From positions 28,856 through 92,855 of the IMG/VR virus record IMGVR_UViG_3300042691_019380: DNA of 64,000 bases; one strand, given 5' to 3'. This document shows positions 45,575-61,705 of this stretch, in pieces. The position numbers were made by a program, and so were the translations under genes. Numbering within the stretch: position 1 is the stretch's first letter; each line of letters starts with the position of its first letter. The notes under the pieces are model-generated. The model was not told the DNA's origin. It saw nothing but the letters and a program-made list of their open reading frames with translations, and did no database searches. The DNA is from a virus.

Positions 45575-45736
45575 TTCGCGTCGCCAAGAACGGCTGGCGG
45601 AGACGACCGAACGAGCCTGAGCGCCGCATGCGCTGCACTTCAGATAGCGAACTTGATATTCGCCGCATGGCTTGCTCGTGCGAGTGGTCATACGACCGCG
45701 ACCGCACATCCGACATTTATCGCCGCTTTGTGTCAT
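45563..45736 (-). CDS. 57-aa C4 zinc-finger protein, Ogr/Delta- or NrdR-N-like
   Basis: Not in the ORF track; MTQSGDKCRMCGRGRMTTRTSKPCGEYQVRYLKCSACGAQARS; ATGA-coupled. Confidence 0.7.
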   Translation of the reverse strand: MTQSGDKCRMCGRGRMTTRTSKPCGEYQVRYLKCSACGAQARSVVSASRSWRREKVV

Positions 45737-47637
45737 CGCATCTTTTTCTTGAGGGAATCCACAACACCTTCTCCCATTGCGACTGCAACCGATGCAGACG
45801 TCGGAAGAACAACCGTAGCAACGAGTGTCCCCGCAGCGTTGGCTGTGACCTGGAACCCCTTCCGGACAAGTTTCGCCACGTACGATGGCGACTTGGACTT
45901 CACAACGACGCTAACTTCCTTGGGGGAGTTCTCGTCTGCGATTTTCTTGACCTGAGCGATCTCGCTGCTGGACAGCGTGCCCGACTTGCGGGCTGGCGTG
46001 ATCGTGTACTTCGACTTCCCCATCTCGACGTCGAAGACTTTCTCGCCCTTGCTGTTATTGACCCGAAGCGTGAGTTTGCCGTCTTTGACCCTCGCCACAG
46101 ACGTCGGCGATCCGCCAAGTCGCTGCACGAGAGCGGCCACTTGCTCTTCGTTCGTGCCGATCTCGTTGATCTTCTCCATGACTCGCGTGGGCTGCATGCT
46201 GTTGTCGTAGAGGCCCTTCACGGCACCGACGGCGGCACCGACGGCGGCACCCTTGGCGATGTAGGGCGGGAACGGCCCGACGGCCCCGGCCGCAACCGCC
46301 GCGCCCTTGATTGCGCCTTTTGCAGCACCGACGGCAGCATCGGCGATCTTGCCGCCAGCGCAGGTGTTGCCTTTCTGGAATCCGCCCTCGCCGGTGCCGC
46401 AGTTTCGCGACTGCGCGAACGCGAGCAGGCTGGCGTACCGACATTCCAGAGACTCGTCGGCGAATCCTCGCCACTCGGCGAGGTCTCGATCTGTCGTCAG
46501 CGCGTACTCGCAGAAGTCTTCGTATGATCTGTGCCCGCGATCCTTGGCCTGCTTGGTTCGCTCCAGCATTCTCTTGTACCGCTGGTAGCCAGCGCTATTC
46601 TTGTCGCTGAAATCAAGCGTGAGCGAGAGGCCGCTGCCGTTCTTCGACCACCACTTCTCTCCAGCCTTCGTGCTGATAACGTCTTGGAGCGTGAGCGGCT
46701 CTCCTCGCCTTGCCTTTGCCTCGTGTTCCGGGGACAGGATCGGAGACGGAAGGGAATTGCTGTCGATCTCTGAGAGTATTCGCGACACTCTCGCTGGAGA
46801 GAGTTCGGCGTCGAAGCCGAATCGACCCCAGAGCCTGTAGCCCTGGTAGGTAGGATGATTGGCGTCGCCAGCCGCGAACGTCTTCGCTTTTGAGACTCCT
46901 GCTTTTTCGGCCTCCTCCAGCGACGCGATCATCTTGCTAATGACCATCGCGCCGAGTTGCCGCTCGATTGGCGACTCGCCGTGCTGGGACGAAGACTTCT
47001 CTCTCTCAATCGCCGACGCTACTCCGTTATCGAAGTCGAAGTGGCCGTAGAGGGCGATCGGCGGCTCGTCGCCGTACTTTCTGATGGCGACATCGAGGCT
47101 AACGTATCCGACTGGCCGCTGCCCTGGCCCTTGCCTTCCGCCAGCATAGACGGGAGCCTGGGACTCGACGGTGATCGTCTTGGCGTCGACAACGACCGAC
47201 GGAGAGTACGCCGTCGGGCCCGAGCGACGCACCCTCTCGCTCTCAGTGGAGATATCCACTTCTGAGTTTTTCCCGTCGGCCGCGCCGAAACGCACGACCG
47301 AGGCCACGCTCTCGAATCCAGACTCCTTAGCGATCGTCGAGAATGTCTTGGCGTTGTCTACCTTGATTGCTTTGATATCCGGAAGCCCCGGAATGCCGCC
47401 GCGATGCGAGACGGCTCGGTCGCTGCTCCACCGTCCAGGGAATCCGTTTGCTGTGTTCGGTCTTTGGCGAGGGGCTTCGGCCGACGAAGACTGCCCGCCG
47501 CCGTCAGCGGCACACGTGTTGCCTGGAGCGAACTGCCCGGACTCACGTCCGCAGTCCTCGCCCATTGGGAGAGTCAACTGCCGATCTCGGGCCTCGATGA
47601 ACGCAACGAGGCTCGCGTACCTCGCCTGCAAACTCAT
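45733..47637 (-). CDS. Multidomain head-module protein: Cys-tag, GNAT-like domain, Cys-tag, glycine-zipper domain
   Basis: DCGRESGQFAPGNTC; AAG...GYRLWGRFGFD...GEKWWSKNG; RNCGTGEGGFQKGNTC; GAAVGAAVG. Confidence 0.75.
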   Translation of the reverse strand: MSLQARYASLVAFIEARDRQLTLPMGEDCGRESGQFAPGNTCAADGGGQSSSAEAPRQRPNTANGFPGRWSSDRAVSHRGGIPGLPDIKAIKVDNAKTFSTIAKESGFESVASVVRFGAADGKNSEVDISTESERVRRSGPTAYSPSVVVDAKTITVESQAPVYAGGRQGPGQRPVGYVSLDVAIRKYGDEPPIALYGHFDFDNGVASAIEREKSSSQHGESPIERQLGAMVISKMIASLEEAEKAGVSKAKTFAAGDANHPTYQGYRLWGRFGFDAELSPARVSRILSEIDSNSLPSPILSPEHEAKARRGEPLTLQDVISTKAGEKWWSKNGSGLSLTLDFSDKNSAGYQRYKRMLERTKQAKDRGHRSYEDFCEYALTTDRDLAEWRGFADESLECRYASLLAFAQSRNCGTGEGGFQKGNTCAGGKIADAAVGAAKGAIKGAAVAAGAVGPFPPYIAKGAAVGAAVGAVKGLYDNSMQPTRVMEKINEIGTNEEQVAALVQRLGGSPTSVARVKDGKLTLRVNNSKGEKVFDVEMGKSKYTITPARKSGTLSSSEIAQVKKIADENSPKEVSVVVKSKSPSYVAKLVRKGFQVTANAAGTLVATVVLPTSASVAVAMGEGVVDSLKKKMR

Positions 47638-50489
47638 CTCGCTCGTTCCCTGAGAAACGCCATGGTCTCGCGGACCACGTCGTGCGACCGCTTGCCCTTC
47701 TTCTTGGCAATCTCTTCGCTGGCTTTCTTGTAGGCATCGGTCGCGTCGCCGTCGAACGGATACTGTTCAGTCTTGCTCCCATCGGGGTGCTGGCCCTGCA
47801 CGTACCCCTTGTCGGTGCCGACTTGCTTCGTAGTCCACGGGAAGTCGTCGCCTTTACTCCATGTCTGGACTCCGCCGCCGTCGTCGGACTTGCCGCCAGA
47901 CTTGCCGCCGCGAGCCAACTGGCCTTCGCGGGCTTTGTCGATGAACTCTTGGGCTTCTTTGTCCTTGCCCTTCTTCCACTCCATGTAGCCGCCGGATTCT
48001 TTCTTCTCTTTCGGGGGCTTAACTTTCGGCGTGCCGCTTTGGGGAGACTTCGGCTTGCCTCCGCCGCCTCCAGGTCGCGGCTTATCTTGCTTTCCGCCGC
48101 CGCCCTGCGGCTTGCTTCCATCAGTCGCAGTGCATGAGTTGTCGATGCCTCCGCCTTCTCCAGTGGGGCAGAACCCGCGACGCTCTTGCAGGAACTCTCG
48201 CAAGTCGTCGAGGCTTCGCTTGGATTTCTTTGACAAAACCTTCACAAACTGAGCGACACCGTCCGGACGCTTGGCGTCAATCGCAGAAGTTGACGGAACA
48301 AACCCATTTGCCGTGAGAATCTTGATCGAGCCGCCGTCTGACTGCTTCACGGCAGTCGTTACCGCAGAAGCGCCTGCGGTCCTTGCCATCTTTTCAGCCC
48401 TCGCCAGACCGGCTTTCGACACGCCTGATGGGTGAATCGAGTTCTTCTCGCCAACGAGAACAGGGCCTTCCGCGTATCCCATCTGAAGCCCGTCAGCCTC
48501 GTTGATCCACTTGTTCGAGTGGAAAGAAAACGACTCATCCCCCTTAATGACAACAAATCCTCCGCCTGGAATTGATTTGAAGTCAGACCCCTTTCCGGAC
48601 TGGCGGACAACATCGTTGAAGTTCTTGGACTTCATTCCAACGTCTTTCGCGACAGCAGATGCCTTCATCATTCCAGCGAGTTTCTGCTCGTCTTTCGTGC
48701 CACCAGAAGAAGGAACTTGTGCCGGGGAAAGGTCGTCGTCCGGCTCGGTTCCGTCTGACGTAAACAAGCGAACAAGCAGCCCGGCGGCGCCGCCGAGGAG
48801 AGCGCCTGCGAGGGCTCCTGGCAGTCCTCCGGCAACAAGCCCAACCGCGCCGCCGATTCCTGCTCCGATTTTCGTCGATTCGTCAGAGGCAACTGCTTCG
48901 TCGTACTTATCCTTGGCCTTCTTGGCGGCTTCGATGTTGCTATCGCCGCCGCCCTTTCCGCTAGCCCCGCACGAGTTATCAATGCCGCCGCCTTCGCCAG
49001 TCGGGCAGAACCCGCGACGCTCTTGCAAGAACTGCTTGGTCTTCGCCAACTCCTCGGCGACCTTGGCCTTCACCTTGTTGCGAGACTCAGCGTGTCCAGA
49101 CTTCTGGAACTGCTGATAACTTCTCTTGGCTACGGCAACAGTTGCGTCGCCATACGCCGGGTAGGTCACTGGGCCGCAATCCAGAAGTGACTTGATTTTC
49201 GTTACAAGTCTCGTCGAGCGGCCGCCTTCGTAACTCCATTTTTCGCCGCCTTCGGCGACGACGAAACTGAAACTTGATCCGCGCAAGTCTCCGCGAGCGA
49301 TGCTCTCGGCGATGTCCTGGCGAGACTCGGGCAGCAGGCACTCGTACCGGAGACCCTTCTCGTCGACGGTCATCTTCATCGTCGTCGGGAATCGGCCGAG
49401 CAGATGATTGGGGTCGTGGTTAAACAGGCAGCGAGTTTCCAGCGGTCTCCCCTCGCCATCTTCGCGGCTCTCGACAAGCGAGAACGCACTGGGGTCAATT
49501 CTCTCCACAAAGTCCCCGAGTAGCAACGAGTCTTTTCCAAAGCGGGCCGCATACCCGACAAGGTAAGTCTGCTGCTTCCCAGTGCTTGGGTCAGCCCGCT
49601 TTTCGACTCGAAGCAGATCGGGGTCGGCCTTCTCGACGTTGCTGAAATTGCCAAGAAACCGACGCTCGACGTTGGGAAGCACTGGGGCACTCCTTTGCTC
49701 GGGTGAAAAATACCGCTCGACAACCTCTCGCAACTCGTCGGCGACTGGCTGTCGTTCCGGGTCTTCCTCGATTCGCTTCAGGCACTCCTCTTTCGGAGTG
49801 TCAATGTGGATGTACTCGACCGGAATGTCCGACAACTGGCCCTTCATGTCGTCGCCGACTTGGGTCGTAATGATCCAAGTCTTGTCGACCGACGGCTGCC
49901 GAAGGGCCTTTTCGATAATAAGGCTTCGTATGTCCGTACAATAAGTGATCAGGTTCTTGTTTTTCTGGTGCGGAGGCAGGCCAGACAGGGCGCTCATCAC
50001 CTTGTTGAAGTCAAAGACAACGTCGTTGTCGCCCTTGTTCTGCATCACGTAGGACGTCTTGCCGCTGGCTGGGGCGCCGTGAACGACGAAGACTTTGGGT
50101 TTGATCCCCTGAGTCGAGCCGAAGGGCCGAAGGGAGCGGCTCTCCTCCTCGTCGGCTGCGTTCATCTGCTCGACGACCTTGCGGGCGTACGCCCATCCGG
50201 CGTCGGAACCCCAAAGAGCCCAGGCGATGCGGCCGTTCGAGGGGAATCCGTCGTCTCCGGGGTTCCAGCCATTGCCCTTCTTGTCGATCTCGTGCCGATC
50301 GAAGTAGGCCTTCATGCGACGCACTGTGGAGGGCGAGAGTTTGACTCCGTTTGCCAAGTCTCTCGCCCTGGTGATGCCAACAGCAGTGCCGCCTCGGCCA
50401 TGCTCGCGACGCCATGCGAGGCCTTTTTCGGCTTCCTTGCGGACGCCCTCGGGAGGCGTGAAGTCGATGTGGGAGTATTTTTCAGGCAT
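47634..50489 (-). CDS. HK97-type prohead protease fused to an N-terminal head-associated domain, a P-loop domain and C-terminal tagged domains
   Basis: GYAA.F, F.E.I...AF, LFNHD...LLGR, SFSF, PVTYPAY; GAPASGKT; two RGFCPTGEGGGIDNSC. Confidence 0.88.
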   Translation of the reverse strand: MPEKYSHIDFTPPEGVRKEAEKGLAWRREHGRGGTAVGITRARDLANGVKLSPSTVRRMKAYFDRHEIDKKGNGWNPGDDGFPSNGRIAWALWGSDAGWAYARKVVEQMNAADEEESRSLRPFGSTQGIKPKVFVVHGAPASGKTSYVMQNKGDNDVVFDFNKVMSALSGLPPHQKNKNLITYCTDIRSLIIEKALRQPSVDKTWIITTQVGDDMKGQLSDIPVEYIHIDTPKEECLKRIEEDPERQPVADELREVVERYFSPEQRSAPVLPNVERRFLGNFSNVEKADPDLLRVEKRADPSTGKQQTYLVGYAARFGKDSLLLGDFVERIDPSAFSLVESREDGEGRPLETRCLFNHDPNHLLGRFPTTMKMTVDEKGLRYECLLPESRQDIAESIARGDLRGSSFSFVVAEGGEKWSYEGGRSTRLVTKIKSLLDCGPVTYPAYGDATVAVAKRSYQQFQKSGHAESRNKVKAKVAEELAKTKQFLQERRGFCPTGEGGGIDNSCGASGKGGGDSNIEAAKKAKDKYDEAVASDESTKIGAGIGGAVGLVAGGLPGALAGALLGGAAGLLVRLFTSDGTEPDDDLSPAQVPSSGGTKDEQKLAGMMKASAVAKDVGMKSKNFNDVVRQSGKGSDFKSIPGGGFVVIKGDESFSFHSNKWINEADGLQMGYAEGPVLVGEKNSIHPSGVSKAGLARAEKMARTAGASAVTTAVKQSDGGSIKILTANGFVPSTSAIDAKRPDGVAQFVKVLSKKSKRSLDDLREFLQERRGFCPTGEGGGIDNSCTATDGSKPQGGGGKQDKPRPGGGGGKPKSPQSGTPKVKPPKEKKESGGYMEWKKGKDKEAQEFIDKAREGQLARGGKSGGKSDDGGGVQTWSKGDDFPWTTKQVGTDKGYVQGQHPDGSKTEQYPFDGDATDAYKKASEEIAKKKGKRSHDVVRETMAFLRERAR

Positions 50490-51630
50490 TGTCATTCCAC
50501 TCGTAGTCGTCCAGTTCCCCGTCGTCCCAAATCTCCTGCCACATTTCGTCCAGGCGAACGAGGTCTTCAGGCGACATCCAGTCGTCTCCGGAGCCCAGAG
50601 GCATCTCACGGCGGCTCTCTCCGAACTTCTTGATGAACCTGTCCATGATCTTGGCCTGCGGGCTCGACCTGTCCTTGAGATCGAACGTCACGTCGAGGTC
50701 TTCGCCGTTGTCTCGCCACCACTTTGTGCCCTCTGGGGTGGCGTGCAGATCAAGCAGAGACTTGGCGTGCGACAAGTCTGGCGGAAGTTTCGCCTTGATG
50801 CTGGCCGGAAGCGGCGCATCAAAGCCCATGCGGGGCCAGATCGTGTAGCCCCGCCAGGGCGTAGACGTCACGCTGCCCTTTGTGGCCGAAGAGTTCCCGG
50901 CCGCATTGAGGACGATCCGCGAGACTCCAGCCTTGCGGGCTGCTTCTACTGAGGAAGTCATGGCCCGATAGAACTCGCGAGCAGCGGCATGCCGCTTCGA
51001 GTCGTCAGACTTGATCTGGTCGGACACGTTGATCGTGCTGTGGTAGACGACAGCCTCGCCGGACGCAGTCACGCCGATCACAGACGAGCCGTGCAGTCCG
51101 CTCTCGACTCCGGCGAAGTCACGCTCGAAGGCGAACATCACTGGCGTGACCTTCGAGCCAGGGAACTCCATCGAGAAGTCCGGAGCAGGGCGGACGAAGA
51201 CGTCTGATCCTTCGCTTCCACCAGCGACCATCGGGGCCAACTTCGGGTCGATTCCAGCCGCGTCAAGCGACGCCTTCACGGCCTTCGGGGCCGAGACGTT
51301 GATCGAGCCGTAGCGGCCGTCGCCAACTGGCGGCGGCGACGTGTCTCGCGACGTCTCAGGCCACGAGAAAGTCTCATTGGACGACCAGCGGTCGCCAGAC
51401 GGAGCAGCGGTGGCGGTTCCGCCGTTGCCTTCGTCCGCCGCGCAGTCGTTGCCGCTTCCGAACTTGCCGCTCTCGTCCCGCCCGCAGTCGGCAGAGCGAA
51501 AACTCTTCTTACCGGCAGGGCGCTTTCGCTTTCGCTCTGCGATTGCGTCCAGCAAATGCTGCGGCTTCTTCCAGTCAGGGCCAGCGAGGGACTTCGAGTT
51601 GCCAACGAGTCTTTCGAGCAAAGTCGCCAT
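50482..51630 (-). CDS. Head-module protein: Cys-tag and GNAT-like domain
   Basis: DCGRDESGKFGSGNDC; AAG...GYTIWPRMGFD...EGTKWWRDNG; TGATG-coupled. Confidence 0.75.
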   Translation of the reverse strand: MATLLERLVGNSKSLAGPDWKKPQHLLDAIAERKRKRPAGKKSFRSADCGRDESGKFGSGNDCAADEGNGGTATAAPSGDRWSSNETFSWPETSRDTSPPPVGDGRYGSINVSAPKAVKASLDAAGIDPKLAPMVAGGSEGSDVFVRPAPDFSMEFPGSKVTPVMFAFERDFAGVESGLHGSSVIGVTASGEAVVYHSTINVSDQIKSDDSKRHAAAREFYRAMTSSVEAARKAGVSRIVLNAAGNSSATKGSVTSTPWRGYTIWPRMGFDAPLPASIKAKLPPDLSHAKSLLDLHATPEGTKWWRDNGEDLDVTFDLKDRSSPQAKIMDRFIKKFGESRREMPLGSGDDWMSPEDLVRLDEMWQEIWDDGELDDYEWNDNA

Positions 51631-54600
51631 CAGTAATCCTTGTCCTCGTCGACATAGAACACCATTCCTGTTTTCGTGCGGACGGCTCCTGTGATTCGCA
51701 TCTTCGACGGAGGGCGAATCACCTCGGCTTCCTCTCTTGTGTTTTGCGAATACACATATCCAACGCGAGGTTTTCGGGCGACTAACAGAAGCCGATTCGC
51801 TCCGAACGATCTCGCGGTTCCGCGTGACGTTGTCCAACTATTAACAGAATCGTGAAACACATACCCCCACTTAAGCATTTGCTCTGCTTCGTGGGCGTCG
51901 ACGCTCAGGCCTCTGTACAACTGCAAGCAGCATTCGATAGTCTCGCGAGCGACGGCTTTTTGGAAGTCCTTGCTCATCTGCTCGGCAGCGACGCTTCTCG
52001 CCTCCTCTCGCAACTGATCAATCTCTTCGTCTATCAATTCATTCTCTTTCCAAAGCCAGTCCTCTTGCTCCTTTTGCCTTTCCTCGTCGGTCATGCTGTC
52101 CCATCGCTCTCCGAACTCTTCCTTCTTGTCGAGAGACTTCCACCTCTCTTCGTTTTCTATCTTCTTTTCTCGCTTTAGGTCATCTGCCGCATAGTCGTCG
52201 ATTGCTCCGTACTCGGCGCCGTAAGTGTCAATTTCGTCGCTGCCGTCGCTGCTGAAGCCTGTGAAGTATCCGTACGCCTTGCCTGTGTATGCCTCAAGCG
52301 GCCCCCATCCAGTCTCGATGTCACTGTCAGGCTGGAGTTGCCTTGCTGCCTCGAATGTCACGCCAAGACCAAGATCGCGGCCGTGGCCCTCGATCTCGTC
52401 GAGATAGTCTGGCGTTGACGTATCCCGGCGATCGACAACGAGGATGTCTCCTGCATCGCTTTTGAATGTTTCGGCAGTCTCTCGCTTGTCCGCTTCTGTG
52501 CGAAAGTCTCCGGAAGTTTCATCCGACGTGCCGTCGCCTTCCTCTTGGCACTTATTGTCCTGCCCGAACCGGCCGCTCTCGTCCCGCCCGCAGTCGGCGG
52601 AGCGATAGTCAGTCTTAGCATTGCGAGGCGGCGATGACGGGTCTCGACCGTTGCCGTACTTCGGGATTCGCACGAAAACGGAATTGCCAACGCTGATCGA
52701 GTCAACGCCGCCGACAATCTCTTTTCCGTTACGCTTGTCGTAGTAGTACGTTGCCGTCTTCGGGTTGTATCCAACGGGAGTCCAGTCATCGATGTCTTCA
52801 GGGATTTCTCGGCTCGGGTCGAACTTGCCCTTCACTGTCGAGTGAGTGTTCTTGTTCGTCTTCCCGCGAGCGATCTTTGTCGCGGCTGTTTCCCCGACTC
52901 GGAAGTCCACGTCGCCCTTCAGGCGAATGATCGAGTCGTATCCGATCGCGGCCCCAACTCCAGCGCCGTTTACATGCTCGTGCGCAGTGACAACATAAGT
53001 GCCGTGTTTCTCAAATGCCGGGATGTCGATTCGGAGGTCGAGCAGATACCCGGCCGGAAGAGTTCTGTGAGCCCCGTATTTTTCTCTCTGCGGCTCTTTT
53101 AGCGATGAGATAGCGTCTTCGTCGGATGGCAGGATCGCGAAGTCTGAGTTGCGAGACGACTCGGCTGGCGTGAACGGCTCATAAGACTTGAGAGACTTGT
53201 CGCCAGCAGGGATCGGCTCCTTCCCCTTGTCGGACGCACTGCACGAGTTGTCGATCCCGCCGCCGTCGCCTGTCGGACAGTACGCGCGAGACTCCGCCGC
53301 CCCCTTCATCAACCAAGGCCGCACCTTTCGGTGCTGATACCCAAGTGGCTCGTCGCTCTCGTATTCAGCATCAATGGCACGGCGGACCTTGCGGTTCCGT
53401 TTCGCCAACTCAGCCTTGATGATTTCTGGGCCGACCTTCGAGGCGTAGGCATTCTGCGGCGCGTAGTTGCCAGTCTTCTCGTAGACGGCGTTCTGGCCGA
53501 ACGTCTCGGCGAACAACGCAGGCCATGCACTCTCGGGGAGAGTCGAGGCGTGAGTCAGCATGCCGTTGTATTCGCCGTTGGCCGAGAACGAGTAGCCGCC
53601 GCGAACGTGAGCGACCATGTCATGCACGACACGGAACAAGTCGTTGGCGATCATCGGCTCGCCGTCGGCAGTCTTGTACTTCGTCTCGCGAAGCATCGGG
53701 TGGTCTGGCGTTGCTGCACCAGTGCCGAAGCCCTTGTCGGTCATAAAGAACGAGAACTCGCCAGTCTTGGCGACCTCTTCTCGCATCTTGTCTGAGTTTG
53801 GCTTCGTGCTGCCCGGCGGGTCTCCGTATGGCTCGCCCTCGCCTTTCCAGGCTTTCGCCTTGAGGCCAGCAGCGGTCAGTGCCTCATACTGCCGCCCGAT
53901 CTCGTCGATGAGGTCTTTGTAGGACGCCTCGGCTTCGGGAGTGAGCGAAGCGCCCGATGAACCCTGCTCGTCGGCGGCGGCGGTGATGACTTTCTCGGGC
54001 GGAGTGTCCGCGCGGCCGCGAGACCTGTCCCAGATCGACTTCGGGCTTGGGGAGACAGAGTCGATGGCATCGCGGAACTTCGCCGAGCCGCGAGGAAATG
54101 ACCTGGGCATGGACTCGGGGCTGCGGCTCGAAGATGACGTGCCAGCAGAAGAGCCGTCGTCAGAGCCGCACGAGTTGTCGACGCCGCCGCCTTCGCCGGT
54201 GGGGCAGAAGGCGCGGGATTCTTTCTTGGCGTTACGTCGCAAGAACTCGACCGCGAGATCGGCGAACTCGTCGTCGCTAATCTCGGACATGAATCCGTCG
54301 TACGCAGCCTGCTCGAATCCGCCTTTCTGGTCTCCGTAGAACGGCAGCGGCATAGGCTCTTCGACGTCGCCGAGAGATCGCTTGCTTTCTCGCCTCCTGT
54401 CATGCAGGTTCTGGGGCTCATTGACAATCTTGCGAATCACGTCCGAGTAGAGAGATGGAACCCCAGGGACAGTCGTCGTTCGCGACCCAAGCATTCCCCA
54501 CGTGTCCTGCTCGTCTTGCCAGAGAATGTCCTGCATGTAAGCGACTGAAACTCCAGTTCGCTTCGCCGCCTCTCGCATCACGCGAATCATGTTCGATCGC

Positions 54601-57600
54601 ATGACTGTCGTCTCTGGCTGAGACATGAGACTTGCTTGATTGCTCAGTATGTTGACGGCAAGCCTGTCGAGTTTGTATCGCTTCTCTGTTCCAGTCCCCT
54701 TCTTTGGGCTCGGGAATCCGTCCTTCTTGTATTGCTTATCTCTGGCCTCTGCCCAATCGACAATCTGCTGCGCGATCTCGCCCTTTTGCTTCATTCGCGA
54801 GACCAGCGTCCTGAAACTTCTTCCATCCAGGCCGAGATTCGCGAGTTCCTTGCGGCCAATTGCCCCTGTGGCTGACATCAACTCTGTGCCGTGCTTCTTG
54901 GCTCTGTCCGCTGACGTCTGCGAAACCAACTCTCCGGAGAGACGACCCCACGTTCGCGTGAACCAGATGTCGGCCGTTAAAGCCTCGGTGTCTCCGGTGT
55001 TGTTCGCGAAGAACGGCCCAACCTTCGGGCCAAAGATGCTGAACGGCGGAACTACTTCGGCGACTGCATAACTGTTGGCCTCGTACCGCTCCCCATCGCT
55101 TCCTGGCACCTTCGATAGAAAAAACTTCTCGAAGTCTTTCACTGCGATAGATGGGCCAGAAAACAGACGGCGAGTCTCTTCAAGCCCGACGCGGTCGATG
55201 ATCTTCTGAAGCCTGGAGAAGTTCGTGAGAGTGTTCTGAGCGCCAGCACCAGCCATCGCTACGCCCGCCCCGAGTTTTGCCTTCGACGGGTCTGGCTCTT
55301 CAAAGAACGCTGTCAGCACTGAGTCCGCTCGCAGCATGTTCTCGTATGGGTTCGCTTCTGGAGACGTAAGCGCCTGCGCGGCGCGAAACAGAAACTCGGC
55401 CTGCGGAGAAATGCCGTCCGAAGGCTCACACTCTCCATTGGGCCCCACGACTCCGATGCAAAAACCGGAGGCCGTTTTGCCTCCACGCATGAGCGGCTGA
55501 ACCTCGGCGTACGCCTCGACCTGAGCCTTGCGGTCCTCTGGGCTGTAAAAGTTTGGAGCCACGCCGCGACTCACGGCGGACTCAACCTGGGAGACGATTC
55601 CAGACACCATATACTCGAAGTCTTCGCCGCTTAGCGACTTCGTGGTGTCTATAATCCGGCCGCGATGCTCTGCCTGTCTCGCAAGGAGATGTCTGCCAAC
55701 GTCAAGCGGCTCGATCTCGTCCTTGCCAGCCAGACCGCGAACGACCTTCGCCCCAGGGATCGACGTGGAGAGAATCTTCTTTCCGTTTTCGCTTTTCTTT
55801 GTCGGATTGTTCTGCGACGCTTCGCGAAAGATGTCGACATGACTGTCGCCCGGCCGCCACTTGAGCGGCTCGCGAAACGCCCCTGGCTTCTTCGTCGATC
55901 GAGGCTTCTTGTCCTCGACAGCCGTTCCGCCCCCGTCCTCAGACGCGCAGTCGTTCTTTGGGCCGAACTTTCCGCCGTCGACGCGACCGCAGTCGTCTTT
56001 TCGATACTCAACCCCGACAACAAACTCGCTGCGGTTCTTGTTTCGCTCCTTGAGCCGTTCGAGCATCTTCTTCATCCGCGCGAAACGCTTGTAGCCCGCA
56101 GTAGTCTGGTCGGTGAAGTCGAGCGTCAATTCAATCGTCGACCCGTTCTCGTTCCACCAGCGATCGCCTTCCGGAGTGGCGATCAACTGCTGGACGGTCA
56201 TGCTTCCACTATTGGCTCGTCGCTTCTGCTCTGGGGTAAGTTTGACGTCTTCTTTGATTGAGTCGATGTCCGCGCGATCAATCAGTCCATCGAACCCAAA
56301 CTGCGGCCACAGTCGATACCCCTGCAATGCACTGCCTGAGTTTCCGGCAGCAATCGTGTCGGCGCGAATCGCGCCGGATTCTTCTGCGACAGACAGGGAC
56401 TCGGTCATTCGCTCAAGAACCATACTGACGATCCGCCGCCTGTCGGCCGAGTCGCCTTCGGTGTCGCCGTCGATCGAAGACATGGCGCCTGAGTCGAGAG
56501 ACATGCTGTCGTAGTTGACGACGAGATTCCCATCGTCGTCTTTCATTAGCGACACCATGTTCTTGATATGGCCGAGCCTGCCAGAGCCATCTGGGGCGAC
56601 TGGAATCGACGAATTGACGATGATCGACTCTCCGTACGAGTCGATGCTGATCGAGCCGCCCTGGCGAACGCCTCCGGAGATCGCGACCACGTTCTCGACT
56701 GTCTTTACTCTCCCCATATCAGAGAGAATGCCCTTTAAAGAGTGGACGTCGTTGACGCTGAAAGAGTCCAGAACCTCCGCGCCTTTAAATGGCGGCGACG
56801 CGGAGACTGCCTCGGCATCCATTTCGAGACTGCCGTCGTCGTCGTCGGCTGGCAATGAACTCCCGCCACCGTCGTCGCTCGCGCAGTCGTTGCCTGCTCC
56901 AAAGCGACCGCCTTCGGCGCGGCCGCAGTCTGCCCCGGCCCGGAACTCCGCCTCTTCGTCGAGCCACTGAAAGAAAGACCGCTCTTGATTTCTTTCACGA
57001 AGTTTCTTGAGTTGCGAGACTCGCTTCTGAAACTTGGCGTAGCCAAGACTCTTCTTGTCCGACAGGTCAAGAACCATGCCGAGCGTAGAGCCATTGTTGT
57101 CCCACCAGAGGTCTCCCTCGCGGAACGAAACAAGGTGCTGGACGTTGATGCTGCTATGCGGCAACGCGGCAGCGAGAGCCCCAGCCGAGGGCTTGATGCG
57201 AGTCGCAAACAAGTCGGGCCTCGCGACTCGCATGACTTTCTCAATGACATCCGGCGGGGCCTTAGCCAGGGCGTGCTTGTGGCTCGGCTCAAGCGGGGCA
57301 TCGAATCCGAACTGCGGCCAGAGCCTGTATCCCTTGAGGTCATATTCAGGTCCGCCTGCGGCAGACATCTTGACGCGAGCGATGCCAGAGTTGTCTGCGG
57401 CCATGATGGACTCGATGACCGCCTGCTGCATGAGGCTCGTGGCCTTGGCGACTCGCTCGCGAGTGGCCTTGACCTCCTGAGTTGGAAACATCTCATTGAG
57501 GCCCAAGACATGCTCTCGGCCCTCTTTGTGGACAGTGACGCCGACATGGAAGTAGCCCTCTGAGCCGTCGCCGCTGCGCGAGACCGGGATTTTGTTCTCG

Positions 57601-58976
57601 ACCGAGAGGTACGCACCCATTTCTGGGTGACCGGCGCCAGAAAAAACCACTTCACTGCCACGCACCGTGGCTCCGCCCATGGCGGCGAGATCGTCCAGAG
57701 ACTTGACGCCTGCCTGGGACATGCCCTCCAAGAGAGCCTTCGGGTTGGCGATCTCGACACGGCCAGCCTTCTCTGCTCCCGAGAATGGCGGCTTCTCTTT
57801 GAGATCGTTTCCAGACAAAGACACAGAGTCGTTCGACTCTTTCCACGAGTCGTCGGCTTTGCTCGACGAGCCGCCGCCGTCTGATGCGCAGTCGTTGCCA
57901 GGAGCGAATCGGCCGCCTTCGACCTTCTCGCAGCCGCCGTTGCGGTACTCGACCCAGTCGTCGTCGAGCAGGGCCCTGGCCTCGACGTCAAAGAATGCGT
58001 CCGCCAAGTCCAGGCCACGCTTCGAGAACCGGCCGCGAAGAGAAGTGAACCGCTTCCAGCCTGGGTCTTTGTCGTCGCCGACATTCAGCGACATTTCCAT
58101 CTCGCCGCCGTTCTTCTCCCACCACTCCTGGCCTTCCTTGGTCTCGTAGAGAGACTGGATCGTCAGAGCCCCGGCTGCTTTTTCTTTGCGAGCCCGAGGC
58201 GAGAGAATCTTGTCGGGGATGCCGCTGCCGTATGAATTGAAGAACCCTCTCGCCAGGGACCAAGTGGGCGTGATCCGCTGTCGCGGGATGACGCCATTGA
58301 AGCCCAGGCGGGGCCAGATTCGATATCCCTTGAAGTCAGACGAGTCACGGTTGTCTCCGGCCGCCAGCATCTCGACGCTCGTGACGCCGATCTTCTCGGC
58401 CTGCGTGATGCTCGCGATCGTGCCCTTCATCATGTGGCGGGCGACGGCGACGCTGGCTTTTTGTTTTGCCTCGTCGCTGATCATCAGCATCGTGTAGGAC
58501 ATGACGAGTTCGCCGTCCTCGAAGCGAGTCAGCGAAGCGGCTGTCTTGGCCGCGCCTTCGATGCCAGAGACAGGCATCGTGCTTACGAACGTGACAGTGT
58601 CTTCGATGTACCGATCTGGGTCTTCGCTCCCCATGTACTCGATGATTTCCCGCATCCCGCCGTGTGCGATCACGACGTCAGACTGCGGGTCGATGGCAGC
58701 GCATGCTTTGGCTGCCTGATCGAGAGTCACGCCGATTTCGCGAAGCGACTTGCTGACCAACTCTCCGTCCGAGATGGTCACGGACTTCACGCCAGCGAGG
58801 GACTTCGCCGGGGGCGACTTCTTCAGGTCTTTCCCAGAGATCAGAACCTTTTCCTGCTCTCGCTTCCACGAGTTGTCGACCCTTGGCCCGCCTTCATTGG
58901 CCGAGCAGTCGTTCTTAATGCCGCCGCCTTCGCCCGTCGGGCAGAAGGCCCGGAACTCTTCTTCCAGAAAAATCAC
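51630..58976 (-). CDS. Giant polyvalent protein (2448 aa): 7 Cys-tags, 3 GNAT-like domains, glycosylase-like, HDxxxH domain, unknown domain, C-terminal ADP-ribosyltransferase
   Basis: Internal repeats visible; LYRG...SWTT...EAEV (R-S-E); GTGA-coupled to the portal stop. Confidence 0.8.
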   Translation of the reverse strand: MIFLEEEFRAFCPTGEGGGIKNDCSANEGGPRVDNSWKREQEKVLISGKDLKKSPPAKSLAGVKSVTISDGELVSKSLREIGVTLDQAAKACAAIDPQSDVVIAHGGMREIIEYMGSEDPDRYIEDTVTFVSTMPVSGIEGAAKTAASLTRFEDGELVMSYTMLMISDEAKQKASVAVARHMMKGTIASITQAEKIGVTSVEMLAAGDNRDSSDFKGYRIWPRLGFNGVIPRQRITPTWSLARGFFNSYGSGIPDKILSPRARKEKAAGALTIQSLYETKEGQEWWEKNGGEMEMSLNVGDDKDPGWKRFTSLRGRFSKRGLDLADAFFDVEARALLDDDWVEYRNGGCEKVEGGRFAPGNDCASDGGGSSSKADDSWKESNDSVSLSGNDLKEKPPFSGAEKAGRVEIANPKALLEGMSQAGVKSLDDLAAMGGATVRGSEVVFSGAGHPEMGAYLSVENKIPVSRSGDGSEGYFHVGVTVHKEGREHVLGLNEMFPTQEVKATRERVAKATSLMQQAVIESIMAADNSGIARVKMSAAGGPEYDLKGYRLWPQFGFDAPLEPSHKHALAKAPPDVIEKVMRVARPDLFATRIKPSAGALAAALPHSSINVQHLVSFREGDLWWDNNGSTLGMVLDLSDKKSLGYAKFQKRVSQLKKLRERNQERSFFQWLDEEAEFRAGADCGRAEGGRFGAGNDCASDDGGGSSLPADDDDGSLEMDAEAVSASPPFKGAEVLDSFSVNDVHSLKGILSDMGRVKTVENVVAISGGVRQGGSISIDSYGESIIVNSSIPVAPDGSGRLGHIKNMVSLMKDDDGNLVVNYDSMSLDSGAMSSIDGDTEGDSADRRRIVSMVLERMTESLSVAEESGAIRADTIAAGNSGSALQGYRLWPQFGFDGLIDRADIDSIKEDVKLTPEQKRRANSGSMTVQQLIATPEGDRWWNENGSTIELTLDFTDQTTAGYKRFARMKKMLERLKERNKNRSEFVVGVEYRKDDCGRVDGGKFGPKNDCASEDGGGTAVEDKKPRSTKKPGAFREPLKWRPGDSHVDIFREASQNNPTKKSENGKKILSTSIPGAKVVRGLAGKDEIEPLDVGRHLLARQAEHRGRIIDTTKSLSGEDFEYMVSGIVSQVESAVSRGVAPNFYSPEDRKAQVEAYAEVQPLMRGGKTASGFCIGVVGPNGECEPSDGISPQAEFLFRAAQALTSPEANPYENMLRADSVLTAFFEEPDPSKAKLGAGVAMAGAGAQNTLTNFSRLQKIIDRVGLEETRRLFSGPSIAVKDFEKFFLSKVPGSDGERYEANSYAVAEVVPPFSIFGPKVGPFFANNTGDTEALTADIWFTRTWGRLSGELVSQTSADRAKKHGTELMSATGAIGRKELANLGLDGRSFRTLVSRMKQKGEIAQQIVDWAEARDKQYKKDGFPSPKKGTGTEKRYKLDRLAVNILSNQASLMSQPETTVMRSNMIRVMREAAKRTGVSVAYMQDILWQDEQDTWGMLGSRTTTVPGVPSLYSDVIRKIVNEPQNLHDRRRESKRSLGDVEEPMPLPFYGDQKGGFEQAAYDGFMSEISDDEFADLAVEFLRRNAKKESRAFCPTGEGGGVDNSCGSDDGSSAGTSSSSRSPESMPRSFPRGSAKFRDAIDSVSPSPKSIWDRSRGRADTPPEKVITAAADEQGSSGASLTPEAEASYKDLIDEIGRQYEALTAAGLKAKAWKGEGEPYGDPPGSTKPNSDKMREEVAKTGEFSFFMTDKGFGTGAATPDHPMLRETKYKTADGEPMIANDLFRVVHDMVAHVRGGYSFSANGEYNGMLTHASTLPESAWPALFAETFGQNAVYEKTGNYAPQNAYASKVGPEIIKAELAKRNRKVRRAIDAEYESDEPLGYQHRKVRPWLMKGAAESRAYCPTGDGGGIDNSCSASDKGKEPIPAGDKSLKSYEPFTPAESSRNSDFAILPSDEDAISSLKEPQREKYGAHRTLPAGYLLDLRIDIPAFEKHGTYVVTAHEHVNGAGVGAAIGYDSIIRLKGDVDFRVGETAATKIARGKTNKNTHSTVKGKFDPSREIPEDIDDWTPVGYNPKTATYYYDKRNGKEIVGGVDSISVGNSVFVRIPKYGNGRDPSSPPRNAKTDYRSADCGRDESGRFGQDNKCQEEGDGTSDETSGDFRTEADKRETAETFKSDAGDILVVDRRDTSTPDYLDEIEGHGRDLGLGVTFEAARQLQPDSDIETGWGPLEAYTGKAYGYFTGFSSDGSDEIDTYGAEYGAIDDYAADDLKREKKIENEERWKSLDKKEEFGERWDSMTDEERQKEQEDWLWKENELIDEEIDQLREEARSVAAEQMSKDFQKAVARETIECCLQLYRGLSVDAHEAEQMLKWGYVFHDSVNSWTTSRGTARSFGANRLLLVARKPRVGYVYSQNTREEAEVIRPPSKMRITGAVRTKTGMVFYVDEDKDY

Positions 58977-61705
58977 AGCGAGAAAGCCCCGTTCGTGATG
59001 CGAGACAAGAGAGACATGACGTCGCTGTCGTACTCCTTGCCAGCCCACGAGCCAGCAATGACTTCAGCGACGAACTCGCGGCTGCCGGTGGCGGCGTAGC
59101 GAGAGACGCGAGTTGCGACGCTTCGCGACTCCTCGTCTTCAAGAGACACAGACGCCTCGTATGAGTCAGCGTCTGCGATCGCGTGGTGGCGATGCGCGAG
59201 TTCGTGCAGAAGCGGATTCGGCTGGGACAGCCATCCGCGAGCAGCGGCCAGACGAAACGACGCTGCGACTTCTTCTGTCAGAGATTCAGACACGTAGATC
59301 GTGTCTGTGTCGCGGTCGTACTCGGCGATCGCGCGGGCCTCGGCCTGGGGCCTGAAGACGACGTCAGGCACATCGACGTCGCCTGTTGATCTCAGTTCTC
59401 GGACGAGGGCTTCGACTGCTGCTGCTGTCTGGCCGCTCGCTCGGCTCGCACCCTCTCTCGGGCCTCGTTCAGCGCCTTCGCGATTTTCTCTGCTGACGCC
59501 CCCGCCGGGAAGTCGAATCGAACGGGCTTGCTTGGGCCTTGTTCGTCGGGCATCGTACTCTTCCTTTCTGATTTCTCTCTTCTCGTTCAAATCCCATATC
59601 GCGAGTTGATCCGTGGATTCAGCGGAGTCAATCGCATCGTCAATGCTATCGAACTGCTCAGAGAGGTCAAGGTAAATCTTGTCGGAGTCACCGTCGATCC
59701 ATCCTCCAACGTGCAGTGCTGGCCTAGCCTCGAACTGAGACTTGTTGTCGTCCATGAACTTGGCGATCAACTCTCCGGTGACTTGCTCCTTGGAGTCGAT
59801 CACAACTTCAGCAGCCTTAACGACGCCGACCATGTAGCCAGTCGTCGGGCTGTCTTCAGTGACGGGATGAATCGAGAAGCCGTTCGTTAGATCAATAGAC
59901 TTTCTCGCTTTTTCTGCGATCCTCTCGGCCTTGTCTTTGTCGACTCCAGACTTCGACTCAGACTCAGACTCAGACTTGGAGCCGCCGCCTGTCTCGGGGC
60001 TGCACGTCGGATCGACGCCGCCGCCTTCGCCAGTGGGGCAGAAGGCGCGAGACTCCGGCATGCTCAGTTTCTCTTCTGGAATGATCCAGAGTTTGCAGAT
60101 CGCATTCGGCGAGATAACGCCCTTCACGATCTCGCACGAGCCGCCTTCTTCGTAGTAGATGCAGTTCCGGCACGAGATGCCGCGAGACGCGAACGGGTTC
60201 TGCTCCATGTAGTGAGCGCCGCTCGCCCCCTGCTGCGGCCAGCGTCCGTTCTCTTTGACGATCGCTTCCTGGGCGTCATAGAGGGCTTGGTTCTGCGGCG
60301 AGAGGGCTCGCTTCTCTTCGATCGCCTCTTCCATCTTTGGCTTGGGCTCAGACTTCTCGCCCTGTTCAGCCTCGTTGGGGGCCTTGCCAGTCTTGACTTC
60401 CGGAAGACTTGGGACGCCTCCCTGGGCTGGCGGCGGAGGGCCGCCAGGAGGTGCCGCCATCGGGTCTGGCTTAGGCTTGACCGCGTCCTCCAGCGTCTGC
60501 ATGTTCATGCCGACGAAGTGCTTGTCGCCATTTTCGAGCGGCGGCATGTTTTCGAGACGACGACAGTCGTTGATCGAAAAAATGCCCAGATTCGTCATCG
60601 TGGAGTAGTACGACGCGCGAGAGTTGGAGTCGCCTCGCATCAGGCCGCGAACGTCGAACTCGGCCACGAAGAGATCGTCGTTGTAGATCAGAGACCGAGA
60701 GATGGCACTCTCGATGCGACGCAGCCACGGCACGAGCGTGTACGTGACGAAGTCTTGGCCTTCGATCTCAGGGTTTCCGCCAGACTGGCCCTGAACGAGC
60801 CTGACCGGCAGCCTGTAGACCCTGGCGATCTCCTCGGACTGGAATCGCCGTGTCGACTCGAACTGGGACTGTTCAGCAGTGAAGCCGACGGGCTCGACTT
60901 TTAGGCCGTTGGTCAAGATCGCAGTCTTGTACGCCCGGTCGACCCCACGATGGAGTCTCTCCCAATTGTCTCGCAGTCGCTCTGCGGCCTCGGGGGAGAG
61001 AGAACCGTCCGTCTGAAGCACGATGCCGGGACGTGCAGAGTTGGCCCAGAACTTCGCGGCGTGAATCTCGCACGCTCTCGCCAGGGCGATCGCCTCGCGG
61101 GCGACCTCGACCGGGACCATGCCCTTGATGCCGTCGGGCTCGGCGGTCCACCGGACGTGCATGATCTGGTCTTGCGTGTACGGCTCAAGTCTCCCGTTCT
61201 CCGGATTCGTGTACATGTACCGGAGTCGGCCGTTTTCAAGCCGCTCGACGTCCATGCGGGACGGGTGGAGGTTGATGAGTTCAGAGACAGCGCCATATCG
61301 GCCAGACTTGATCTGCGTGTAAGAGTTCCCCCACAGGCACAAGTTCATAACCATCTGCTCGAAGAACTCGAACTTGGTCTGCCAAGAGTTTGGAGCAAAA
61401 GCCAAGACTCGGTACAGGGGGATATCCCTGGCGATATCTTTGCTCCCGCCTTCGCCTCGCCTGTAGACATGCAAGGGCAGGGCACTGATCGTCTCGGCGA
61501 GAATGCGGCAGCAGGCCAGGACGACCGTCGACTGGAGAGCAGTCTCGGGCGTGACCCTGACTTCCGACTCAGTCCTCCACCGGCCGCCGTAACTCTCGTC
61601 CGAGAGCAAGAAGTTGTTCCACGAGATGCCGCGAATCTCGGGCTCAGACAGCCCGCGCTCTGGTGTCCAGACAATGTCGGACAGGGCCCTGTTCTCTTCG
61701 CTCAT
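58973..61705 (-). CDS. HK97-family portal protein with ~480-aa C-terminal extension (HiPIP-like, tag, unknown domain, zincin)
   Basis: V.AC..IL.E.IS.LP, PN.WQT.FEF, GNSY, QF.E.R.F...EIAR.Y.LP, L.PWL..IE; CxxC..C..C.LW; HELAH...RYA...E.VAE. Confidence 0.93.
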   Translation of the reverse strand: MSEENRALSDIVWTPERGLSEPEIRGISWNNFLLSDESYGGRWRTESEVRVTPETALQSTVVLACCRILAETISALPLHVYRRGEGGSKDIARDIPLYRVLAFAPNSWQTKFEFFEQMVMNLCLWGNSYTQIKSGRYGAVSELINLHPSRMDVERLENGRLRYMYTNPENGRLEPYTQDQIMHVRWTAEPDGIKGMVPVEVAREAIALARACEIHAAKFWANSARPGIVLQTDGSLSPEAAERLRDNWERLHRGVDRAYKTAILTNGLKVEPVGFTAEQSQFESTRRFQSEEIARVYRLPVRLVQGQSGGNPEIEGQDFVTYTLVPWLRRIESAISRSLIYNDDLFVAEFDVRGLMRGDSNSRASYYSTMTNLGIFSINDCRRLENMPPLENGDKHFVGMNMQTLEDAVKPKPDPMAAPPGGPPPPAQGGVPSLPEVKTGKAPNEAEQGEKSEPKPKMEEAIEEKRALSPQNQALYDAQEAIVKENGRWPQQGASGAHYMEQNPFASRGISCRNCIYYEEGGSCEIVKGVISPNAICKLWIIPEEKLSMPESRAFCPTGEGGGVDPTCSPETGGGSKSESESESKSGVDKDKAERIAEKARKSIDLTNGFSIHPVTEDSPTTGYMVGVVKAAEVVIDSKEQVTGELIAKFMDDNKSQFEARPALHVGGWIDGDSDKIYLDLSEQFDSIDDAIDSAESTDQLAIWDLNEKREIRKEEYDARRTRPKQARSIRLPGGGVSRENREGAERGPREGASRASGQTAAAVEALVRELRSTGDVDVPDVVFRPQAEARAIAEYDRDTDTIYVSESLTEEVAASFRLAAARGWLSQPNPLLHELAHRHHAIADADSYEASVSLEDEESRSVATRVSRYAATGSREFVAEVIAGSWAGKEYDSDVMSLLSRITNGAFSL

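Follow-up and report, generated by a model that had tools for sequence, protein, structure and literature searches.

In this study, we analysed a 64,000-nt stretch of viral DNA (hereafter the window), the right-hand 64 kb of the 92,855-bp single contig IMGVR_UViG_3300042691_019380, which belongs to an uncultured tailed phage with a G+C content of ~60%. Five translationally coupled genes on the minus strand, running from the portal gene towards the capsid gene, were found to encode 13 copies of a short glycine-rich peptide bracketed by two cysteines, here called the tag. All but one of the tags stand shortly after an Arg that has the same form as the predicted maturation site of the phage's own capsid protein, and across phage lineages the residue at this position follows the family of the prohead protease. 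We lean, by a modest measure, towards the reading that these proteins are capsid-packaged polyvalent cargo, which the Peptidase_S78 (S78) prohead protease would cut after Arg into tag-headed modules.

The two-cysteine tag as a module header

A regular-expression scan of the five translated open reading frames (ORFs) returned 13 tags, all in frame, whose 3′ ends lie within 1 nt of the positions given in an earlier note on this DNA, and strict type A and type B patterns searched in six frames over the whole 92,855-bp genome gave no match beyond these 13 places. Six copies are of type A, CPTG(E/D)GGG(I/V)xxxC, six are of type B, C(G/E)(R/K)x(E/D)xG(R/K/Q)FxxxNxC, and one is an A/B hybrid with its first Cys at 46401, which agrees with the two flavours and single hybrid described in that note. 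The tags are listed below in window coordinates, the higher coordinate of each row being that of the first-Cys codon; ↓ marks a candidate cut, and stretches with a predicted local distance difference test (pLDDT) score are numbered within an AlphaFold model of residues 1560-2472 (ORF numbering) of the giant protein.

60002..60040, minus strand: tag 1, type A, ESR↓AF-CPTGEGGGVDPTC, in the portal C-terminal extension
58905..58943, minus strand: tag 2, type A, MIFLEEEFR↓AF-C..., 9 residues from the N-terminus of the giant protein
57888..57932, minus strand: tag 3, type B, EYR↓NGG-CEKVEGGRFAPGNDC
56883..56927, minus strand: tag 4, type B, EFR↓AGAD-CGR...
55947..55991, minus strand: tag 5, type B, EYR↓KDD-CGR...
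54168..54206, minus strand: tag 6, type A, ESR↓AF-C..., inside the pLDDT<50 stretch 47-92
53241..53279, minus strand: tag 7, type A, ESR↓AY-C..., inside the pLDDT<50 stretch 328-383
52548..52592, minus strand: tag 8, type B, DYR↓SAD-CGR..., opening the pLDDT<50 stretch 591-722 directly after the confident domain 384-590
51442..51486, minus strand: tag 9, type B, SFR↓SAD-CGR..., in the 382-aa gene
48969..49007, minus strand: tag 10, type A, ERR↓GF-C..., directly after the protease domain
48132..48170, minus strand: tag 11, type A, ERR↓GF-C..., whose DNA is 89% identical to that of tag 10 across 65 nt
47512..47553, minus strand: tag 12, type B-like, CGRESGQFAPGNTC, the sole tag without an adjacent Arg
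46360..46401, minus strand: tag 13, A/B hybrid, QSR↓N-CGTGEGGFQKGNTC

An Arg lies 2-5 residues ahead of the first Cys in 12 of the 13 tags, as had been claimed, the exception being the first tag of the 634-aa protein. Over the ~25 residues after each tag, Gly, Ser and Asp make up 17%, 15% and 10% of the sequence, compared with 10%, 9% and 7% in the five proteins overall, and Ala is enriched as well. The cassette of each module consists of E-x-R, a small residue, a 13-15-aa two-cysteine loop and a Gly/Ser/Asp-rich spacer. When 39 copies standing ahead of the GNAT-like domain in this and related phages were aligned, types A and B shared alignment columns, with an extra two-residue (R/K)-F insertion in type B. 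Judged by sequence, the two flavours are variants of one element, with the hybrid at 46401 bridging them. At the DNA level the copies form direct repeats of 62-93% identity; since the DNA has diverged this far while the peptide is kept, it is the peptide and not the DNA that is conserved. Neither the tag nor most of the modules matched a family in Pfam (E up to 1) or PHROGs.

Analysis of more than 60 related IMG/VR loci showed that the tag-delimited segments recur as independent units with tags at many junctions, and that they are shuffled among the portal C-terminus, the giant protein, the protease C-terminus and a pre-capsid protein. The tag is the boundary of these portable units, in line with the earlier proposal that each copy starts a new domain. 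In the giant-protein model, the three long stretches with pLDDT below 50 (47-92, 328-383 and 591-722) each contain one tag and its spacer, and residues 384-590, enclosed by two of these tags, form a domain scoring 83-98; low-confidence linkers at the tags flank confidently folded domains, and the domain boundaries coincide with the tags as expected. In a public set of 173 tagged proteins, at least 65 residues always lie between the last tag and the C-terminus (at least 100 in 171 of them), and the first tag was within 30 residues of the N-terminus in 20. A tag that invariably has a domain behind it, is never close to the C-terminus and in some proteins lies near the N-terminus is a header, not a trailer. 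Furthermore, small stand-alone proteins starting with MLKAF-CPTG... lie among protease, scaffold, capsid and connector genes. The tag can be read as a per-module header that would act on the separated module.

The tag is almost confined to viral contigs, where it lies in or beside head genes. In IMG/VR, a degenerate DNA pattern for type A matched at least 116 stretches, with at least 163 tag copies among the matches listed, and a type B pattern matched 94 stretches. In 596 Gb of prokaryote genomes (185,579 species), the type A pattern matched 15 places, of which only two are true tags; at the other 13 the flanking signature is missing. An exhaustive profile search of 1.84 billion representatives of 50%-identity clusters yielded 1,370 proteins at E ≤ 1e-3, of which 403 reach E ≤ 1e-10, and a single protein can contain as many as ten tag copies. 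The proteins P0126 (2500 aa) and P0127 (2644 aa), with ten copies each, are the richest cargo trains seen. The best tagged matches bear mainly the Pfam labels Phage_Mu_F, ART-PolyVal, ADPrib_exo_Tox, topoisomerase IB, ParB, GNAT, 2'-5' RNA ligase, inteins and portals. For tagged genes from unrelated lineages, the gene immediately upstream encodes a portal in all 10 cases (PF06381 in seven, PF06074 in three), and the peptide core of the tag is invariant across lineages with three portal families. The tag is tied to head modules, but not always to the portal-to-capsid interval: in one divergent relative (L133:10046-14788), a Leu-class protein carries five copies of LPxGLxL↓AF-CPTGKGGG ~1.5 kb upstream of TerL, next to genes that have no annotation. 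Tags were not equally common outside head modules.

The predicted cut site and the prohead protease

To describe the residues ahead of the tag, positions were counted back from the first Cys, so that -3, -5 and -2 correspond to P1, P3 and P1′ of the predicted cut. In the 77 distinct type A tags of the clade, -3 is Arg in all 77, -5 is Glu in 63, -2 is Ala or Gly in 75 and -1 is Phe or Tyr in all 77. Among the 106 distinct type B tags, the usual preceding sequence is E-x-R-(S/A)-x-D, and in 97 of them the nearest Arg is 2-5 residues before the first Cys. The corresponding site was located in the major capsid protein as follows.

44898..44903 (Arg and Ala codons), minus strand: predicted maturation site of the capsid protein, VDSR↓ALSEGINSAGG, where the ~186-aa N-terminal domain ends

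Here, (D/E)(S/Q)R↓A is kept in 14 of 14 recovered capsid homologues, and a profile of these capsids aligns the maturation point with EGK↓ALNSAVAAEGG of the RcGTA capsid. The layout equals that of HK97 gp5 (...FNK↓SLGSDADSAGS), namely a basic residue before the cut, followed by small-L-x5-SAG. As in the capsid precursors that S78 proteases process, the delta domain ends in a basic residue before an (A/S)-L...SAGG N-arm. In HK97, the S78 protease gp4 is said, from the work of Duda et al. in 1995, to remove the gp5 delta domain after Lys103. At the level of sequence motifs, the pre-tag Arg has the same form as this predicted capsid site.

Nearly every related portal also has an ExR↓A site no more than 150 residues after its core, either as part of a tag or as ExR↓A(L/M). 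The earlier note had named one capsid and two portal sites of this kind, and DSR-ALS, ENR-ALS and EKR-ALS are all present; the portal N-terminal ENR-ALS, however, is probably not cut and was rejected as a cut site, relatives having Val or Ile at P1′ or no Arg there.

In other lineages, the -3 residue is Asn, Lys, Leu, Tyr or Phe, and it is uniform within the protein in 108 of 112 proteins. Counting core-domain matches only, Arg occurs with Peptidase_S78 in 34 loci (all Arg-class loci whose retrieved stretch contained a recognised protease family), Asn with DUF2213 in 11 and Lys with Peptidase_S78_2 in 4, without a mixed case among these 49. DUF2213 is presumably a prohead protease, in view of its clan membership and of a weak PHROG match. 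The DUF2213 proteins of the Asn class are also long fusions (L022:7579-8445, L035:11190-13901, L068:3570-6566 and other loci), and at least one of them has a tag after the DUF2213 domain, parallel to the S78 fusion described here. Lineage-specific pre-tag motifs are kept even in short leaders, such as MIFLEEEFR↓AF-C of the giant protein (9-aa leader) and MLPAGLEL↓AF-C of the Leu class (8-aa leader), as one would predict if it matters that the phage's own protease exposes an N-terminus of the form (A/G)(F/Y)-Cys.

From these data we infer a route of packaging, cleavage and injection. The portal C-terminus, the 2448-aa, 382-aa and 634-aa proteins and the S78 protease with its add-ons on both sides would form a portal-to-capsid cargo train of 13 tag-headed modules. 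The proteins would be built into the prohead, partly through their fusion to portal and protease; the S78 protease would then cut after Arg, as predicted at the capsid delta junction (DSR↓ALS), and the freed loop-headed modules would be retained inside the head and pass into the host together with the DNA. The loop itself cannot be the P1 determinant of the predicted cleavage, because it is constant across lineages while the preceding residue follows the protease family, and because it also occurs at the extreme N-terminus of stand-alone head-module proteins. As it is nevertheless needed once per module, a loading address used once per protein, like the capsid-targeting sequence (CTS) of T4, is argued against, and the loop would function either on each separated module or in prime-side recognition at each junction. 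Most likely it serves as a flexible N-terminal handle for the handling or exit of cargo, or else as a prime-side recognition element for the cut.

Several points weigh against such processing. The tag at 47553 has no Arg. The capsid maturation site is itself predicted by analogy, from its short motif and from the alignment with the presumed RcGTA junction; between this capsid and HK97 gp5, and between this protease and HK97 gp4, no significant profile or BLAST alignment was obtained. The covariation rests on three clades, which makes effectively three independent events. AlphaFold gives the loop only low confidence and no confident structure, and the model leaves the recruitment of the giant, 382-aa and 634-aa proteins into the prohead unexplained. 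Some virion-carried polyvalent proteins stay uncut, N4 vRNAP being an example (PMC5512222). Finally, a tblastn search of INPHARED with the GNAT-like module and a two-tag stretch returned no match and thus no cultured relative, with the caveat that low-complexity filtering in BLAST could mask the tag; similarity of the portal to cultured INPHARED phages is limited to its core.

A wider proposal, which we put forward tentatively and consider doubtful at present, is that the two-cysteine loop might be a universal portable N-terminal header of capsid-carried proteins in tailed phages. A conserved part of the head or of the DNA exit would then recognise the loop across at least three portal and at least three protease families, and the lineages would have tuned only the preceding residue to their own maturation protease.

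Alternative readings and known systems

Among the alternatives, the one that survives best, although we judge it unlikely, is that the proteins are packaged and stay intact, with the cassette as a metal- or disulfide-stabilised hinge plus spacer and E-x-R as the end of the preceding helix. The loop is kept far beyond the clade with other residues ahead of it, as a connector might be, and N4 vRNAP shows that a polyvalent protein of the virion can go uncut (PMC5512222). However, E-x-R is kept alike after a portal linker, after five domain types and after a leader of only 9 aa, and it matches the capsid junction motif. Moreover, the residue switches with the protease family with 0 exceptions in 49 loci, and the tags at the extreme N-terminus of stand-alone proteins join nothing.

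The tag could also, in line with a role proposed in the earlier note, be mainly a capsid-targeting or docking peptide of the T4 CTS or encapsulin cargo-loading type, binding scaffold, shell or portal. Its presence only in head-module proteins, its place at the N-terminus of small stand-alone proteins beside protease, scaffold and capsid genes, and the flexible spacer behind it would all suit such a role. Yet one address per polypeptide would suffice and the giant protein has seven; modules already fused to portal or protease are tagged as well; the lineages have no scaffold type in common; and the tag lies after the predicted cut and would be retained, unlike the CTS (PMC9026906). We regard this explanation as improbable.

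Less probable still, to our mind, is processing by another activity, be it the zincin-like HELAH domain of the portal, a protease of the host once the cargo has been injected, or the cassette cleaving itself. The portal C-terminus does contain a zincin-like HExxH...E motif, and Iyer et al. suggest that polyvalent proteins are processed by their metallopeptidase domains (PMC5512222). Among 12 portal-C-like segments from related loci, however, only five close relatives shared the zincin subdomain, and HExxH is conserved in just 6 close relatives, which makes this domain unlikely as a general processing enzyme. S78 occurs in all 34 Arg-class loci with a detected protease, and the motif is that of the capsid site. 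In DUF2213 lineages, the invariant Asn at -3 is reminiscent of Asn-dependent self-cleavage, but the replacement of Asn by Arg rules out one common self-cleavage chemistry. A mainly DNA-level role, in which the tag is a recombination junction for module swapping and its peptide has none, would fit the extensive shuffling at tag positions among relatives but is ruled out for practical purposes, as a conserved peptide on DNA of 62-93% identity, with a core invariant across three portal families, means that selection acts on the protein.

Returning to cleavage by the S78 prohead protease, we compared the predicted route with known systems. The earlier note had taken the arrangement for a new system; our comparison instead places it among the phage-type polyvalent proteins, as a variant of a published class in which portal fusions and ART+GNAT combinations occur (PMC5512222). 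Polyvalent proteins are large and multi-domain, lie beside portal or terminase genes, occur as MuF or portal fusions, are predicted to be packaged and injected, and combine ART, GNAT, peptidase and kinase-type domains (PMC5512222). Like them, the window genes are flanked by TerL, portal, S78 and capsid genes with modules carried by the portal itself, the giant protein combines at least five kinds of module in one polypeptide, and outside this clade the tag sits in MuF polyvalent proteins. Unlike them, the window has no MuF domain (PF04233 was not detected there in Pfam scans), portal and prohead protease being the fusion partners, and PMC5512222 proposes autoprocessing by metallopeptidases and not prohead-protease sites. 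The words 'cysteine', 'glycine' and 'linker' are absent from the text of that paper, which seems not to describe the header.

In T4, the internal proteins IPI-III and Alt carry a CTS that gp21 cuts at the consensus of the capsid proteins, and the cargo is then injected (PMC9026906). As is predicted for the present phage, the head-internal cargo of T4, which includes an ART, has a short N-terminal element in common. The T4 CTS, however, binds the scaffold core and, lying ahead of the cut, is lost on cleavage, whereas the present loop follows the predicted cut and would be kept, the leader ahead of a tag being as short as 9 aa. T4 cargo is also encoded by single genes and not by polyproteins, with Glu at P1 against Arg here and a protease other than the S78 type found here. 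Ejection and inner-body proteins of phiKZ and SPN3US are processed by the prohead protease (PMC5694885); they resemble the arrangement predicted here in having paralogous head-protein families and a portal with a long removable extension, with a single protease motif at all cuts, but differ in their long N-terminal propeptides, (S/A/G)-x-E motif and separate genes, and no Cys-loop header has been described for them. With HK97 gp4/gp5, the phage shares the protease family by Pfam and the capsid junction layout, but HK97 is not known to have cargo or portal or protease extensions. MuF polymorphic toxins (Jamet et al. 2017, PMC5576092) likewise anchor variable modules on a head protein, but they belong to temperate phages and are prophage-borne, with an N-terminal MuF domain, one C-terminal toxin and immunity genes, whereas the tag is nearly absent from cellular genomes. 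The text of PMC5576092 has neither 'motif' nor 'cysteine' and seems not to describe the header.

The class is hence published, and in T4 and giant phages internal or ejection proteins are known to be processed by a protease (PMC9026906, PMC5694885). A search of the literature and family libraries turned up neither the header and its two flavours, nor the lineage-matched cut site, nor portal and protease in the role of carriers; CPTGEGGG, CPTGDGGG and PTGEGGG gave no hit in that literature, and the two matches to FCPTG were unrelated parechovirus papers.

Gene layout, carried modules and implications

The genes of the head region were delimited as follows.

61716-63332, minus strand: TerL gene, by Pfam match
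58973..61705, minus strand: portal gene, 910 aa from the ATG at 61705 (start and ribosome-binding site checked), PF04860 at 2.9e-94 over ORF aa 84-409
51630..58976, minus strand: giant cargo gene, 2448 aa from a GTG start
50482..51630, minus strand: 382-aa gene, with a 45-aa leader, then tag 9, then a GNAT-like domain
47634..50495, minus strand: prohead protease fusion gene, 953 aa, PF04586 at 4.1e-29 and PHROGs
49101..49580, minus strand: Peptidase_S78 (HK97 gp4-type) domain, 102.3 bits against a cut-off of 21, ORF aa 344-503, phrog_80 at 2e-35
45733..47637, minus strand: 634-aa gene, with tag 12 and a GNAT-like domain, then tag 13 and a glycine-zipper module
43965..45458, minus strand: major capsid protein gene (HK97 fold), PF05065 at 1.1e-33, N-terminal delta-like domain of ~186 aa

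A Pfam scan of the window recovered TerL, portal, Peptidase_S78 and Phage_capsid, and three large ORFs had no Pfam family. The start of the giant gene overlaps the portal stop (GTGA), the junction of the giant and 382-aa genes is TGATG, the 382-aa and protease genes overlap by ~14 nt, and the protease and 634-aa genes are joined by an ATGA overlap; the overlaps and starts of the five genes were as previously claimed. The capsid gene begins ~275 nt beyond the 634-aa gene and is uncoupled. The protease ORF ends with ...AFLRERAR (47634-47700, minus strand), which resembles the helices preceding tags (FLQERR↓GF) and has no tag behind it, and the 634-aa gene starts with RYASLVAFIEAR, a near-repeat of RYASLLAFAQSR ahead of tag 13 (46402-46470, minus strand). 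In its sequence, this gene boundary looks like a former module junction that was divided into two genes.

The portal protein consists of a core, a Pro-rich linker, a small Cys4 domain, tag 1, a subdomain and the zincin-like HELAH subdomain, its C-terminal extension being ~500 aa long. The motif of the last subdomain matched Pfam WLM only at E=0.15. The Cys4 mini-domain (~87 aa; C-x2-C ... C ... C; 60080-60330, minus strand) lies between the portal EEKR↓ALS site and tag 1, and it would result as a small product of its own if both flanking sites were cut. Seven tag-headed modules make up the giant protein: three GNAT-like ones, a 596-aa, a 309-aa and an L5-gp82-like one, and a C-terminal module. 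Foldseek of the 913-aa giant-protein model gave nothing usable. The protease ORF runs from an N-terminal domain (phrog_2859) through a P-loop kinase-like domain and S78 to two tagged modules, a glycine-zipper one behind tag 10 and a C-terminal one behind tag 11; additional ExR↓S sites occur between the domains that precede tag 10 (N-terminal, kinase-like and protease). The kinase-like domain (49620-50120, minus strand) scores 20.7 bits with AAA_33, below the cut-off of 27, matches phrog_4581/9644 and occurs in no more than 6 related loci. Behind tags 10 and 13, the modules open with extended hydrophobic stretches rich in Gly and Ala (48700-48990 and 46150-46360, minus strand), and their glycine-zipper matches are below the Pfam cut-off. 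These stretches look like membrane-inserting segments, as channel-forming ejection proteins might have.

Five tagged modules (three in the giant protein, one each in the 382-aa and 634-aa proteins) are paralogues of one ~300-aa GNAT-like domain with invariant AAG...GY(R/T)(I/L)WP..GFD and EG..WW..NG motifs. Its AlphaFold model has a pLDDT of 79.9, with only 55-63 for the tag. Nearly all of the top 50 VIA structure rows for this model are GNAT-type acyltransferases with Z scores of only 5.1-6.9, and Foldseek gave probabilities up to 0.97 at E above 1e-3; no Pfam GNAT match was found for the module. With these five paralogues among the 13 tagged modules, the cargo is less diverse than the dozen effectors of the earlier note would suggest.

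Phages carry enzymes in their capsids to disarm the host at entry. To our knowledge, the marking, separation and release of such cargo are understood only for T4 and a few giant phages. The header together with the lineage-matched cut site would give a sequence rule for recognising capsid cargo, and with it candidate anti-defence effectors, in metagenomic phages, and it predicts the specificity E-x-R↓A/G/S for one clade of S78 prohead proteases. Portal and protease, besides MuF, appear to serve as cargo carriers. The loop may represent a concrete, mutable element for the loading and ejection of proteins and possibly for phage-mediated protein delivery, and, if it were a universal header of capsid-carried proteins, it would amount to a general transplantable address for the loading and delivery of foreign proteins by phages.

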